A stretch of DNA of 64,000 nt from an uncultured Candidatus Rokubacteria bacterium (GCA_963848005.1 CAWKCA010000046.1:27481-91480); one strand, 5' to 3'. Positions 29,100 to 62,315 are shown, counted from the first letter of the stretch. Numbers and translations are program-made. Notes: generated from the letters alone by a model not told the origin.

Positions 29100-29102
29100 G
29101 GT

Positions 29103-30130
29103 CGCGTCGCCTTCCTTCGTGAGAGTGACCGTGGGCTCGACCGCGGTGAGGTCGACGGTGACGCCGACCGCGATGCGGCGTCCATGATACCGGAACCGGT
29201 GGCGATCCCGGAGTCCGCGGCAACCTGAAGGAGGCGCACGAACGCCGCGTGGACGTCGAGGCCCAGCCCGTCCACGGTGGCTTCGCGGCGGCGCGAAAGG
29301 CCGTCGATGGCCCCGGCCGTCCACACACGCCTCGATCACGCGTCGCTCGACCTCCGGCGTGTGAAGCAGCGCTTGCCCGGCGAGTCGGCCCAGCGCCGCC
29401 ACGATGCCGTACGCGCCCCAGTTCGACACGCCGGCCACCACGAGGTGATCGGTCTCGACCACGGTGGCGATACGAGTCATGAGCGGTCCGAGTCGCCGGA
29501 GTCGCACCCGCACCTTGCCCATGCCGATCTCGTTGCCACCGTCCCCCACCCCGATGGTCACCACGTGCGAGAGCGGGCGATCGGAGCCACGCGCACTTCG
29601 AACAGGCCGCCCGCGTACTGATCCGGGCTGGCGGACCCCGCTGCAAACAAACAGCTCGTCGATGGGGCGGTTCCACGCCGCCACGGAGGCACCGCGCGCA
29701 TTGAGGTAGTCGCCCTCGCGGCTGCGCCCTGGGCGCTCGATGGCGATCATGTGAGTCGGGCGCTCGCGGCGCAGCAGGGCGGGCGCCACACCGTCACCCT
29801 CCGGATACACCATGATGTCGGCCCGCTGGCCCAGCGCCGTCAGGGCTGACGTCAGAATCGGCACGTTCACCGGATCGGTGACGTAGCGCACCCGCGCGCC
29901 GAGCACGCTCAGGCGCGTGTCCGAGCACGGCGGCCCCGGGGGGCCCGTCGGTCTCGGGCGCGTCGGCGGCCACGGCGAAGCCTGTGGTGATGAGCACGCG
30001 CCGCGCGCCGAGCAGCGCGCGCGCGGCATCCTGCGCCGCGCCGGGGGTGAAGAAGGCGGCGATGCCGCGCCCTCCGGGATCGAGGGCGAGCAGATGATCG
30101 ATGGGGTCCCAGGGACGCGACACGCCCGAG
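29103..30130 (-). pseudogene. DUF4392/D-glutamate-cyclase-like protein, fragmented over at least two frames.
   Basis: Frame A (ORF 29794..30306) gives ...DPGGRGIAAFF...VLITTGFAVAADAPETDGPPGAAVLG. Frame B (the upstream part of ORF 27777..30029) gives ...YLNARGASVAAWN...IGVGDGGNEIGMGKV...LVVAGVSNWGAYGIVAALG. Together these are the family motifs in the correct order but in different frames. A CCCCGGGGGGCCC homopolymer lies at about 29933. Confidence 0.5.
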
Positions 30131-30133
30131 AGT

Positions 30134-31913
30134 TTACTGTGACGAGCCGACCTCGAACAGGAGCGCCTGGTAGGGCCGCAACGGGGCACCGCCCGCGCCA
30201 CCGAAGCGCGAGTCGGCGCTGTCGAGCAACACGCGCGCACCCGGAGCCAGCGGCGGCAGCGGCTGCGCCGTGGCGCCCAGGTTGGCCACCAAGACCACGC
30301 GCTCACCCGTCGCTGCCTCGCGCGCCAGCATGAGCACGCCGAGGGTCGTCTCCACTCGCGTGCTCCGCTTGCCGCGCGCGCCCAGTGCGGGGTGAGATCG
30401 ACGCAACGCGAGCCAGGCGCGATAGTACGCGCGCAGGTCGCGGTGCCCGGACGCGTCCGCCAGCACGTGCTCCAGCCGTGCGCGCGAGAAGGTGGTCGGA
30501 TCGCCGGGATCGTCGATCAGCGTTCTCCAGCCGAAGCGCTCGACCTCACGCTGGCGTCCCCGCCGCACGGCCTCGTTCAGGCCCGGCTCCAGGAATGACG
30601 TGAAGAAGGGAAACGGCGCCACCTCTCCGTATTCCTCGCCCATGAAGAGCAGCGGGATGGCCGGGGTCACAAACAGGAGCGCGGCCGCCACCTTGACGGC
30701 GTCGGCACCCAGCAAGGCACCCAGGCGATGGCTGCCCGGGCGGTTGCCGACCTGGTCGTGGTTCTGCATTGAGATCACGAAGCGGTCGCCCTCGAGATCT
30801 GCGCTGGGCGTGCCGCGCGGCCGGCCCCAGTAGGCCGAGGGCTCGCCTTGGAAGGCGAACCCATCGGCAATCGCGCGCTCGAGCCCGCGCCCCCCGGGGA
30901 AGTCCGCGTAGTAGCCCACCGGCTCGCCCGTCAGTCGCGCATGGAGGGCGTGGTGGAAGTCGTCCGACCACACGGCATCGAGCGCGAGCCCGTTCGGCGG
31001 CGAGAGCACCAGGCGCCGATCGTTGTCATGCGACTCGGCGACGAGGTGCGCGGGCCGGCCGAGCGTCATCGCTTCTTCACGCGCGGCCGCCGCCACGCTC
31101 GGTGAGAATGTGGACGGCACTCGCATCGACGATGGCATGGACGGCATCGAGGCGCAGCCCATCGAGGTGGAACTCTCGCACCCAGTACCGGGCGTTCTCG
31201 GCGAAGTGCCGGCGCACACCCGCGGCCTCGGGGCCATCGAAGTCGAGCCCCGGGCCCCAGGGCGTCCGGTGGCGCGTGGTGAAGTAGGGGCCGAACTCCG
31301 CGAGATAGTTTCCCTCGGGTCCCAGGTGGTTGTAGACCACGTCCAGGATCACCGACAGGCCGGCCGCATGACAGGCATCGACGAGGCGCCGGAGGCCATG
31401 GGGCCCTCCGTAGGTGGACTGGGGCGCGTAGAGGTGCACGCCGTCGTAGCCCCAGCCGCGCGCGCCGGGGAACTCCGCCACCGGCATCAGCTCCACGGCT
31501 GTCACGCCGAGGTCAACCAGGACCGGGAGGTGTGGAATCACCGCCTCGAAAGTCCCCGCCCGCGTGAAGGTCCCGACGTGAAGCTCGTAGATGACCAGGT
31601 CGCGCCGCGCGTGGCCGCGAAACCTCTGGTCGGTCCACGGAAAGGCCACGCCGTCGACCACCGCGGACGGGCCGTGCACTCCCTCGGGCTGGGAGCGCGA
31701 CACCGGGTCGGGCCGGGCGCGGTCCCCGTCAAGGCGGTAGAGGTAGCGCGTCCCGGCCGGCGCGCCGTCAACCTGCCCTTCAAACAGGCAGCCGGGGCAC
31801 GCTCGGAGAGGCACGGCACGACCGTTCACGAGGACGTCCACTGACCGGCAGTAGGGCGCCCACACCCGAAATTCGGTTCCGCCTGTCATAGCACTTGCAC
31901 CTAGCGCGGTCAT
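30134..31913 (-). CDS. treZ: Malto-oligosyltrehalose trehalohydrolase TreZ (GH13 with N-terminal CBM48-like domain), with a single frameshift near 31120.
   Basis: The N-part (ORF 31077..32060, start MTALGASAMTGGTEFRVWAP at 31913) reads through GWGYDGV...LDVVYNHLGPEGNYL...LDGLRLDAVHAIVDASAVHILTE. The C-part, in a frame shifted by one base, gives AAAAREEAMTLGRPAHLVAESHDNDRRLV...WSDDFHHALH...QNHDQVGNR. The conserved order is preserved. Deleting one base between them restores HILTE-VAAAAREE. Confidence 0.75.
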
Positions 31914-61070: not shown

Positions 61071-61073
61071 CGC

Positions 61074-61400
61074 TCAGTGCCCGCCCGTGCAACCCGCGCA
61101 CTGGCAGAGGGCGCGAAGATCCGCGTAGGGCCAGAGGCTCTCGTGAGCGTCCGCCCACAGCACCCGGAGGCCCGCCGGCGTCCGGGTGATCTCCTGGGGC
61201 CAGGCGCGCGCAGCGGGTGTCAGGTCGAGGGTCTGGCACACTCCACACGCGCAGGCGCGACGCAGACGATCGAAGGGGAAGATGCTGCCGTGATCATCGC
61301 TCCACGTCACCCCGACCGCGTAGCGTCCCACCAGGTGGACGTCCTTGGGCACGTTGGGATCGGGCTGGCCGAGGAGCGGGAGCAAGACCTTCTTGTTCAT
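61074..61400 (-). CDS. DUF971-family protein (gamma-butyrobetaine-hydroxylase-like N-terminal Zn-ribbon domain).
   Basis: The 108-aa product MNKKVLLPLLGQPDPNVPKDVHLVGRYAVGVTWSDDHGSIFPFDRLRRACACGVCQ...LCQCAGC has a paired CxC...CxxC pattern. Its start overlaps the stop of the upstream glycosylase (ATGA). Confidence 0.65.
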   Translation of the reverse strand: MNKKVLLPLLGQPDPNVPKDVHLVGRYAVGVTWSDDHGSIFPFDRLRRACACGVCQTLDLTPAARAWPQEITRTPAGLRVLWADAHESLWPYADLRALCQCAGCTGGH

Positions 61401-62315
61401 GTCCCTCCGCCGGCGCGGGGCCGGGCGAGCCGCAGTCCCGCCAGCAGGTAGTGCACGGCCACTGTCTGATGGGGTCCCCAGGCGCTCGCTCGGCGGCGGA
61501 TGGCCCGCTCGCTGAGTGCGCGCCGGCGGCCATACCGTTGAACGAATGCCTTGCGCACGGCCAGGTCCCCGGCCGGGCACACGTCGCCGCGGCCCAGACA
61601 GCGGGCGAGGAACCAGTCGGCCGTCCACCGGCCCAACCCGCGCTGGGCGGTGAGGAGGTCGATGATCGCCCCGCTCGGCGTCTCCGCCAGGCCGTCGAGG
61701 TCCAGGGCACCCGCGGCCACGGCGCGCGCGAGGTCGCGAACGTACTCTGCCTTGCGCGTGGAGAACTTCATGGCGCGCAACTCGGCGATGCGGCCGCGCG
61801 CCAAGCGTCGGCGCGTCGGGGAAGGCGTAGACCGTCTCGCCGTCGATGGTGACCGGCTCACCGTAGCGCCGGACCAAGCTCGCGCGCAGGGCAAAGGCGA
61901 AGGCGAGATTCACCTGCTGCGCCGTGATCGAGCCGACCAGCATCTCGAGCCCGCCCGGCGTGAGACTCGGGCGGAGCCCATAGAGCGGGTCGATGAGGGA
62001 TCCGAGCACGGCATCGGCCTTGGCCATGCGATAGAAGCTCGCGAGGTCGAAGTCGAGACCGAAAATCCGCCGGACGTCAGCCGTCACCGCCTCGGCCACG
62101 CGCGCGCGGGCCCTCGGCATGTCCACCTCGAGTCGCGCCGCGTCGGTGGGGCCTGTCCACCGGACGGCGAACGGCCACAGCCGGCCTTCGGAGCGCCGGA
62201 CGCGCAGGAAGGTATCGCCGACGAGCCGGTTGGCGGGGTCCTCACCCCACAGCCGGTAGCGCGCCAGCGTCGCGGGCACATCGAGCGGACCCTCGGGAGT
62301 GAGTGCGATCTTCAT
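61397..62315 (-). CDS. HhH-GPD superfamily DNA glycosylase (AlkA/3-methyladenine glycosylase II-like), with one frameshift near 61800.
   Basis: The N-part (frame of ORF 61074..62315) MKIALTPEGPLDVPATLARYRLWGEDP...LVGSITAQQVNLAFAFALRASLVRRYGEP is the AlkA N-domain and helix-hairpin region. The C-part (ORF 61397..61894) ...RAMKFSTRKAEYVRDLARAV...LLTAQRGLGRWTADWFLARCLGRGDVCPAGDLAVRKAF... carries the HhH-GPD motif with the catalytic Asp. Confidence 0.7.

Follow-up and report, generated by a model that had tools for sequence, protein, structure and literature searches.

We conclude from sequence comparison, with a probability of about 90%, that the frameshifts crowding the second half of a Candidatus Rokubacteria (Methylomirabilota) locus are consensus errors, made in the sequencing or assembly of one public contig, and not mutations of the organism. 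The window, i.e., the whole 64,000-nucleotide stretch that we analyzed, belongs to a contig of 169,748 bp. Its frame-breaking changes are specific to this contig, almost purely indels, biased toward insertions, and without evolutionary trace. Private indels, the lack of nonsense codons, low dN/dS, the insertion bias, and the lack of a substitution excess bear out the original prediction of assembly error instead of gene decay. The genes would be intact in nature, and the deposited sequence would carry spurious extra bases and, less often, lack bases.

Frameshift sites were found by frameshift-aware alignment of relatives' intact proteins with the window DNA, a method that raised no internal false positives when applied to 11 intact control genes, and were checked a second time by DNA alignment to contigs 96 to 98% identical to the window. 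As a working assumption, contigs at this identity were treated as the same species. Six or seven further metagenome data sets supplied these contigs, which comprise L001 and L173 (ENA ERZ27397410); L085, L088, L090, L091, and L092 (five JGI samples); and L174 (Logan). They cover positions 3.0 to 19.1, 27.6 to 39.3, and 40.5 to 64.0 kb; the stretch from 39.34 to 40.54 kb, which holds part of mak, has no same-species reference. In the more distant relatives L083, L084, and L089 and in Rokubacteria MAGs from GTDB, the genes are intact and their order is kept. A scan of GTDB with GlgC found no same-species genome (top match, 76% amino acid identity) but did reveal the phylum, and in a scan of JGI metagenomes with CopA all of the matches listed were at ≤57% identity, reflecting generic P-type ATPase motifs.

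Between 29.1 and 62.3 kb, we found 48 frame-breaking indels across 17 genes (35 of +1, nine of −1, three of +2, and one of −4). About 30 had been predicted in the second half of the window; they are real and concentrated there, and their number had been underestimated. All 13 genes named at that time are frameshifted where predicted, and the minimum counts for GH57/DUF3536 (three or more), mak (three or more), and copA (four or more) rise to five, five, and nine, respectively. Four further genes are affected: DUF2889 (eight events), a gene for a 165-amino-acid (aa) hypothetical protein (four), csoR (one), and a 121-aa hypothetical gene (−4 bp). The affected genes are as follows.

29099..30123, minus strand: GLUCM-like/DUF4392 gene; +1 at 29321 and 29914, by frameshift-aware alignment with the L084 protein; intact (341 aa) and without both inserted bases in the same-species contig L090.
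30137..31913, minus strand: treZ-like alpha-amylase; +1 at 31096; intact in L090 (568 aa) and L084 (592 aa).
34984..37366, plus strand: GH57/DUF3536 gene; +2 at 34992 (codons 4 to 6), +1 at 35595, 37248, and 37287, −1 at 36019; L090 and L091 concur against the window at 35595 and 36019, as do L090 and L092 at 34992; intact in L091 (800 aa).
37363..39346, plus strand: glgE; −1 at 37368, which throws the ATG out of frame, and −1 at 37921, where a G5 run is read as G4.
39352..40722, plus strand: mak (maltokinase); +2 at 39465, +1 at 39645, −1 at 39779, 40152, and 40208; sites found against both L083 and L084, the last two against L089 too.
40679..41174, minus strand: 165-aa hypothetical gene; +1 at 40733, 41064, and 41168, −1 at 40832, in comparison with L088 (same species) and L089.
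41204..42799, minus strand: ggt (gamma-glutamyltransferase); −1 at 42728 and +1 at 42779, both within the first 25 codons; homologues are almost all 532 aa.
42783..43824, minus strand: PurM-like gene (AIRS/AIRS_C); +1 at 43288 and 43728.
43832..44778, minus strand: DUF2889 gene; +1 at 44074, 44218, 44276, 44481, 44673, and 44729, +2 at 44295, −1 at 44652; sites recovered identically and independently against L001, L084, and L089.
44775..47015, minus strand: copA (P-type Cu ATPase); +1 at 44873, 44952, 45355, 45406, 45461, 45510, 45538, 46127, and 46807; intact in L001 (743 aa).
47015..47297, minus strand: csoR-like repressor; +1 at 47025.
47378..47739, minus strand: 121-aa hypothetical gene (hyp121); 4-bp deletion at 47447 in a GC-rich short repeat.
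47739..49263, minus strand: rng (RNase G/E family); +1 at 48720, a C inside a G6 run; intact in L001 (507 aa).
50415..52215, minus strand: mrdA (PBP2); +1 at 50656, just upstream of the KTG motif; intact in L001 (599 aa).
56757..58659, minus strand: ABC-F ATPase; +1 at 57060.
59614..61070, minus strand: MFS transporter; +1 at 59968 and 60094.
61397..62315, minus strand: HhH-GPD (AlkA-like) glycosylase; +1 at 61806.

The first 29 kb had been described as essentially clean. It is far sparser in events but contains two, in the following genes.

7270..9661, plus strand: GMC oxidoreductase; +1 at 7672, the only event of the error type before 29 kb.
11465..13457, minus strand: PAS-HisKA-HATPase-receiver kinase; 4-bp AT-only insertion at 12098-12101, which creates a TAA stop.

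Event density is 0.08 per kb at 1 to 23.9 kb, 0.9 per kb at 29.1 to 39.35 kb, 3.9 per kb at 39.35 to 47.3 kb, and about 0.5 per kb at 47.3 to 62.3 kb; for the first versus the second part, the binomial p is 3e-10 (47 of the 48 events used). The rate peaks at 39 to 47 kb, with no step at 29 kb, where a density break had been described. A chimeric join near 29 kb, which had also been suggested, is contradicted because same-species contig L090 is colinear with window positions 27601 to 36885, which tests a join at 28 to 29 kb from 27.6 kb on; the colinear stretch runs from tRNA-Phe through a clean aminotransferase gene into frameshifted genes. That tRNA-Phe (27641 to 27716) is the only RNA gene found with Rfam, and the low-GC, noncoding-looking blocks at 23.4 to 27.8 and 54.6 to 56.5 kb match neither rRNA nor other Rfam families. 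The pooled event rate goes up with local GC, yet it is flat across GC classes inside each region, so region, not GC, drives the effect. An error rate that varies along the contig and is highest at 39 to 47 kb would reflect an error-prone consensus, probably a long-read one, that had thin or uneven support from reads and was incompletely polished; uneven coverage or polishing is our best guess at the cause. Coverage-dependent indels that cause frameshifts are documented in long-read assemblies and MAGs (PMC9262707; PMC8103633; preprint 10.1101/2021.08.23.457338).

None of the 48 second-half indels is present in same-species contigs L001, L088, L090, L091, and L092 in the regions that they cover. 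The affected genes of the second half are called full length there, and wherever two of these references overlap, they match one another and differ from the window. No lesion is shared with any of the six or seven other same-species data sets. Once repaired conceptually, the genes contain no nonsense codons, and dN/dS is 0.065 for mrdA, 0.07 for rng, 0.10 for alkA, and 0.17 for ABC-F; with MFS included, the range is 0.065 to 0.20, not approaching 1. In the repaired frame, 74 to 84% of substitutions in mrdA, rng, alkA, and ABC-F fall at third codon positions. Values are higher for copA (0.38) and DUF2889 (0.41); judged from dN/dS alone, these accessory genes may be under relaxed selection, although the increase may partly be alignment noise beside their 17 indels. 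With L089 as the outgroup, window- and sister-specific substitutions number 46 versus 44 at 40.5 to 43.6 kb, where frameshifting indels number 8 versus 0, and 41 versus 30 at 43.5 to 44.8 kb. Lineage-specific changes in ggt are distributed over the three codon positions as 6/1/17 in the window and 7/3/14 in the sister. Compared with its sister contigs, the window is enriched in indels but not in substitutions.

These comparisons bear on whether the strain underwent real, very recent mass pseudogenization, in which some 50 frameshifts, e.g., from a +1-biased mutator episode, would be too young to leave a signal of relaxed selection. The species does show frameshift polymorphism (a kinase gene in L173 and L174), dN/dS is raised in copA and DUF2889, and insertions that are context specific and lie outside homopolymers are no standard sequencing signature. 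We nevertheless consider such an event very unlikely: mrdA (broken just before KTG) and rng, a cell-wall and an RNA-processing gene of presumably important function, and 15 more genes would have been inactivated together in a viable cell. Nonsense codons and a deletion bias are lacking, the window lineage has not accumulated additional substitutions, and no site is shared with any other same-species contig. The hits fall on essential and accessory genes alike, and the same type of insertion in housekeeping and accessory genes argues that a single process made them all.

The indels themselves point the same way. Among events with a same-species reference, insertions outnumber deletions 35 to 6 (p = 5e-6), and 29 of the 35 insertions (83%) duplicate no neighboring base, i.e., extend no run; of the six deletions, only three fall within a run of at least 3 bases. 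The earlier view that the indels are often at G/C homopolymers does not hold against these figures. Three explicit repairs, in ggt, GH57, and the PurM-like gene, had been offered with that view; they do restore the frame, but the first two are not changes in homopolymer length: in ggt, L088 shows the missing base to be the G of CCGC, and the GH57 N terminus departs from the same species by +2 bases accompanied by substitutions. GG to GCG on the plus strand is the most frequent event, and G[C]G insertions are strand asymmetric, 13 versus 1 for the reverse complement. Bacterial gene decay usually shows a deletion bias, and replication slippage duplicates a neighboring base. A spectrum rich in nonduplicating insertions is the reverse of both and does not fit biology. 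The extra bases also run counter to the usual homopolymer signature of Nanopore, 454, and Ion Torrent data. They could in principle be real, products of a recent burst of strand-biased, nonslippage GG-to-GCG +1 insertions by a mutator or DNA-processing activity, seen before selection or further decay had acted, or tolerated through a correction at the RNA level; we hold this to be extremely improbable.

Alternatively, the consensus may have been built or polished from co-occurring strains, with single-nucleotide differences misresolved as extra bases. Such mixing would yield inserted bases unlike their neighbors, and the indels are densest in the very stretch that is most divergent and variable between strains (30 to 67 substitutions per kb against L001 in copA and DUF2889 versus 7 to 25 per kb elsewhere). 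However, the local sequence around most insertions is otherwise identical, and mismatches within 4 nucleotides of indels are not enriched (13 observed versus 10.2 expected; p = 0.2), leaving haplotype mixing an unlikely source. Recoding by programmed ribosomal frameshifting, transcriptional slippage, or RNA editing would restore the frames and has in its favor that the downstream frames are perfectly conserved, and nothing else. Up to nine shifts occur in one gene. Among events with a same-species reference, only 50656 has an A/T flank (a single A becoming AA), so none of these lies in an A/T homopolymer tract. The extra bases are missing from 96 to 98% identical relatives, and these relatives without the shifts effectively refute recoding, to which we assign a vanishingly small probability.

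Natural frameshift differences do occur in this species at a low rate. The error-type +1 at 7672 is absent from L085 and L173, in which the GMC oxidoreductase is intact at 796 aa; it is likewise intact, at 802 aa, in L086 and L087, and homologues are about 800 aa. By contrast, the 4-bp insertion in the histidine kinase, which splits the HATPase_c domain at profile position 42, is different in kind from the other events and probably a real lesion. L173 lacks this insertion, yet its kinase is broken at window position 12605, as is that of L174, and its giant repeat gene is broken at 18541, where the window is intact. The hyp121 deletion could likewise be natural variation, and a 40-bp extra segment at 43844 to 43884, between the DUF2889 and PurM-like genes, is natural variation; we considered a tandem duplication at this place, and no repeat was found. 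A shift suspected at about 11.1 kb was dismissed, as the relatives likewise have two separate small UGSC genes.

A mixture, mostly errors with a subset of real decay, is possible, if doubtful. Candidates for the subset are copA, DUF2889, mak, the 165-aa gene, the two 4-bp events (kinase, 12098; hyp121, 47447), and a 5′-truncated PEP-mutase gene. The kinase insertion, AT-only and stop-making, is unlike the other events and sits in a gene broken elsewhere in another strain, and the hyp121 deletion sits in a short GC repeat. copA is missing from L083 and L084 and is thus accessory, and with DUF2889 it shares the dN/dS values of 0.38 to 0.41. Against this, alignment noise may contribute to those values, and the copA and DUF2889 events are +1 G/C nonslippage insertions as in mrdA and rng, with one deletion and no stop codon.

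With consensus error as the preferred reading, the frameshifts are not a biological feature, and no new biology is indicated. On this contig, gene calling, pseudogene counting, estimates of completeness, and reconstruction of metabolism are unreliable, and the functions hit include the GlgE-pathway glycogen/trehalose cluster, copper export, and rod-shape genes. The remainder of the contig's MAG is probably affected too, and truncated products already sit in public protein collections. Correctors and filters aimed only at homopolymers would overlook most of these errors, which are insertion biased, nonhomopolymeric, and strand asymmetric.

Pseudogene-rich genomes arise by reductive evolution in Mycobacterium leprae and in recently host-restricted symbionts, and true decay is marked by nonsense mutations, deletions, relaxed dN/dS, and lesions common to related strains. 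The window resembles these genomes in that many genes, conserved ones included, are interrupted by frameshifts, but we looked for all four marks of decay in it and did not find them. In endosymbionts, transcriptional slippage rescues poly(A) frameshifts and needs long A/T homopolymers at the shift; there, as here, essential genes are frameshifted yet under selection, whereas the window sites are G/C rich and mostly outside runs. The closest likeness is to indel errors of long reads of the Nanopore or PacBio CLR type. The published descriptions concern mainly homopolymer-length errors (PMC9262707; PMC8103633; proovframe preprint 10.1101/2021.08.23.457338; PMC12007338), and our case differs from them in that 83% of insertions extend no run, insertions prevail by ∼6:1, and G[C]G is in excess on one strand. 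It shares with long-read errors the restriction to indels, the fragmented gene calls, the lack of a substitution excess, and the absence from short-read assemblies of the same taxon. Its uneven distribution along the contig fits the coverage dependence described in these four studies (the last being Kastor).

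The window has a G+C content of ~70%, and GlgC and its neighbors match best, among GTDB representatives, MAGs of Candidatus Rokubacteria/Methylomirabilota (74 to 76% amino acid identity). Nine intact window genes have their exact products in the public protein collection, all on one NCBI/ENA contig of 169,748 bp, evidently the source contig. GC3-phase Viterbi segmentation placed frequent frame switches on the same strand beyond 29 kb and only a few up to that point. A purpose-written frameshift-aware protein-to-DNA aligner, queried with intact-gene proteins of relatives (L084 and L086), detected a shift in every gene listed in the original prediction and no internal shifts in 11 control genes (aminotransferase, GH57 branching enzyme, glgC, luciferase-like, PIG-L, ADH, Meth_synt_2, a 377-aa gene, two UGSC genes, and a 303-aa gene). 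DNA alignments, both pairwise and three-way, then located each event with a precision of a few bases. Contigs from other datasets with 96 to 98% DNA identity were treated as the same species: L001 and L173 (ENA ERZ27397410), L085, L088, L090, L091, and L092 (five JGI samples), and L174 (Logan), counted as six or seven independent datasets because L174 may share material with L173. They cover 3.0 to 19.1, 27.6 to 39.3, and 40.5 to 64.0 kb of the window; at 39.34 to 40.54 kb, which holds most of mak, events were called against the more distant L083 and L084 (81 to 86%) and L089 (89 to 92%).

Between 29.1 and 62.3 kb, 48 frame-breaking indels fall in 17 genes (+1, 35; -1, 9; +2, 3; -4, 1). All genes named in the original prediction are indeed shifted, but DUF2889, csoR, and the 165-aa and 121-aa genes had been missed and several others undercounted.

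Frame-breaking events per gene, 29.1 to 62.3 kb
DUF4392-like gene, 2 events
treZ, 1 event
GH57/DUF3536 gene, 5 events
glgE, 2 events
mak, 5 events
165-aa gene, 4 events
ggt, 2 events
PurM-like gene, 2 events
DUF2889 gene, 8 events
copA, 9 events
csoR, 1 event
121-aa gene, 1 event (4-bp deletion)
rng, 1 event
mrdA, 1 event
ABC-F gene, 1 event
MFS gene, 2 events
AlkA-like gene, 1 event

The GlgE-pathway alpha-glucan cluster (30137 to 40722; treZ, GH57 branching enzyme, glgC, GH57/DUF3536, glgE, and mak) keeps its order across Rokubacteria MAGs (L003 to L012, L083, and L084); the errors cause four of the six to be mis-called in the window.

In the second half, the affected genes are full length in every same-species contig, none of which carries any of the 48 indels, and overlapping reference pairs contradict the window in the same way. 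Conceptual removal of the indels left no in-frame stops in any repaired gene. The dN/dS values of repaired genes relative to L001 (mrdA, 0.065; rng, 0.07; alkA, 0.10; ABC-F, 0.17; MFS, 0.20) compare with 0.12 for pooled unbroken genes, and third positions take 74 to 84% of substitutions in the repaired frames of mrdA, rng, ABC-F, and alkA. At 40.5 to 43.6 kb, with L089 as the outgroup, substitutions number 46 in the window lineage and 44 in its sister, but frameshifting indels number eight and zero, respectively. Even in ggt, with two shifts in the first 25 codons, substitutions by codon position are 6/1/17 (window specific) versus 7/3/14 (sister). These data indicate that, up to the present, the broken genes have been evolving like intact ones; judged from the alignments, indels are the sole excess in the window contig. 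Genuine genome decay failed on every criterion tested, as did programmed frameshifting. With indels private to the contig, no stops, low dN/dS, and equal substitutions, the main reading of the original prediction, assembly or sequencing error over decay, is supported, and we put the probability that the frameshifts are not a real biological feature at about 90%.

The indel spectrum was characterized on 41 one-base events with a same-species reference, of which 35 are insertions and 6 are deletions (p = 5e-6). The inserted base (plus strand: C, 23; G, 8; T, 3; A, 1) does not duplicate a neighbor in 29/35 cases (expected fraction, 0.43 to 0.49; p of 4e-5 or less). Bacterial decay is deletion biased, and most spontaneous insertions of one base are duplications by slippage; the insertion-biased, nonduplicating spectrum thus speaks against mutation as the origin. 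The G/C homopolymers proposed earlier as the cause are contradicted as well, also by the deletions, only three of six being within runs of three or more. Insertion context is strand asymmetric (7672 to 61806): on the plus strand, GG became GCG 13 times and CC became CGC once, so that G[C]G makes up 13/35 insertions (expected, 3.5 to 6.6%) and its reverse complement C[G]C one; plus-strand genes contribute only two informative insertions, so contig-strand and sense-strand bias are not separable. The three explicit base repairs proposed earlier all restore frame, but two differ in the bases: the missing base in ggt is the G of CCGC (L088), not a fifth C, and the GH57 N terminus differs from L090 and L092 by two extra bases plus substitutions.

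Event density per kb is 0.08 (1 to 23.9 kb), 0.9 (29.1 to 39.35 kb), 3.9 (39.35 to 47.3 kb), and ~0.5 (47.3 to 62.3 kb), with p = 3e-10 for the first versus the second part. The profile is a peak centered on 39 to 47 kb rather than a step at 29 kb. Two events, at 7672 and 12098 to 12101, fall in the first 29 kb, which had been described as essentially clean. The former is a +1 insertion of the second-half type in a GMC oxidoreductase gene (homologs, ~800 aa) that is intact in L085, L086, L087, and L173; the latter is of a different type and lies in the gene given below.

11465 to 13457, minus strand, PAS-HisKA-HATPase-receiver kinase gene; a 4-bp AT-only insertion at 12098 to 12101 (TAAT, sense strand) creates an in-frame TAA

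Natural frameshift differences occur at low frequency in this species: the short-read contigs L173 and L174 have one base fewer at 12605, breaking the kinase gene elsewhere than in the window, and the giant repeat gene, intact in the window, carries one extra base at 18541 in L173. Both 4-bp events, the insertion in the kinase gene and the deletion in the 121-aa gene, may thus be real. Unlike the genes with +1 G/C insertions, the kinase gene looks genuinely dispensable or decaying, and a minority of events in accessory genes may be real.

Event rate rises with local G+C when the window is pooled but is flat across G+C classes within each region; the effect is therefore positional. A chimeric join at 28 to 29 kb, suggested earlier, finds no support in L090, which is colinear from 27601 (tRNA-Phe) via the clean aminotransferase gene into shifted genes. 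The peak overlaps the most strain-variable stretch, with substitutions relative to L001 densest in DUF2889 and copA, which would be consistent with sparse or contradictory reads there; SNPs are not enriched beside indels, and no direct sign of haplotype mixing was found. copA (44775 to 47015, minus strand), located at the peak of indel density, is flanked by csoR and DUF2889 in the window and L001 but missing from L083 and L084, where csoR adjoins DUF2889 directly, marking it as an accessory insertion.

L173 lacks a 676-bp segment (4048 to 4723), and L086 likewise passes from PIG-L directly to ADH; the segment holds a PEP_mutase-family fragment (4056 to 4823, plus strand) without the first ~50 profile positions, which may be a real gene remnant. 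At 15776 to 23883 (minus strand), intact genes encode a C39-peptidase ABC exporter (718 aa) and an adjoining 1,953-aa protein, predicted from its translation to have an M23-peptidase-like start followed by RTX-like and other repeats; short-read L173 lacks 19083 to 24747, through repeat collapse or real deletion. A lower-GC block (23900 to 27640; 0.63 to 0.65) adjoins tRNA-Phe (27641 to 27716, minus strand), where gene order common with relatives ends. Its sole Pfam match is a PD40 beta-propeller ORF (23893 to 25089, minus strand), its small winged-helix-like ORFs having no Pfam matches, and the block may be an integrated island. Upstream of mreB (54650 to 56470), the window lacks a 637-bp segment of L001 (at 54906) and differs by 17-bp tandem changes (55091 and 54856) and by six indels of one base, mostly deletions; this looks like natural variation, its spectrum being opposite to that of coding-region events.

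Gene-fragmenting indels that become worse as coverage falls and are removed by polishing are well documented in long-read assemblies and MAGs (PMC9262707, PMC8103633, 10.1101/2021.08.23.457338, PMC12007338). Although the homopolymer association of such errors finds no support among the window indels, these resemble the documented class in every other testable respect.
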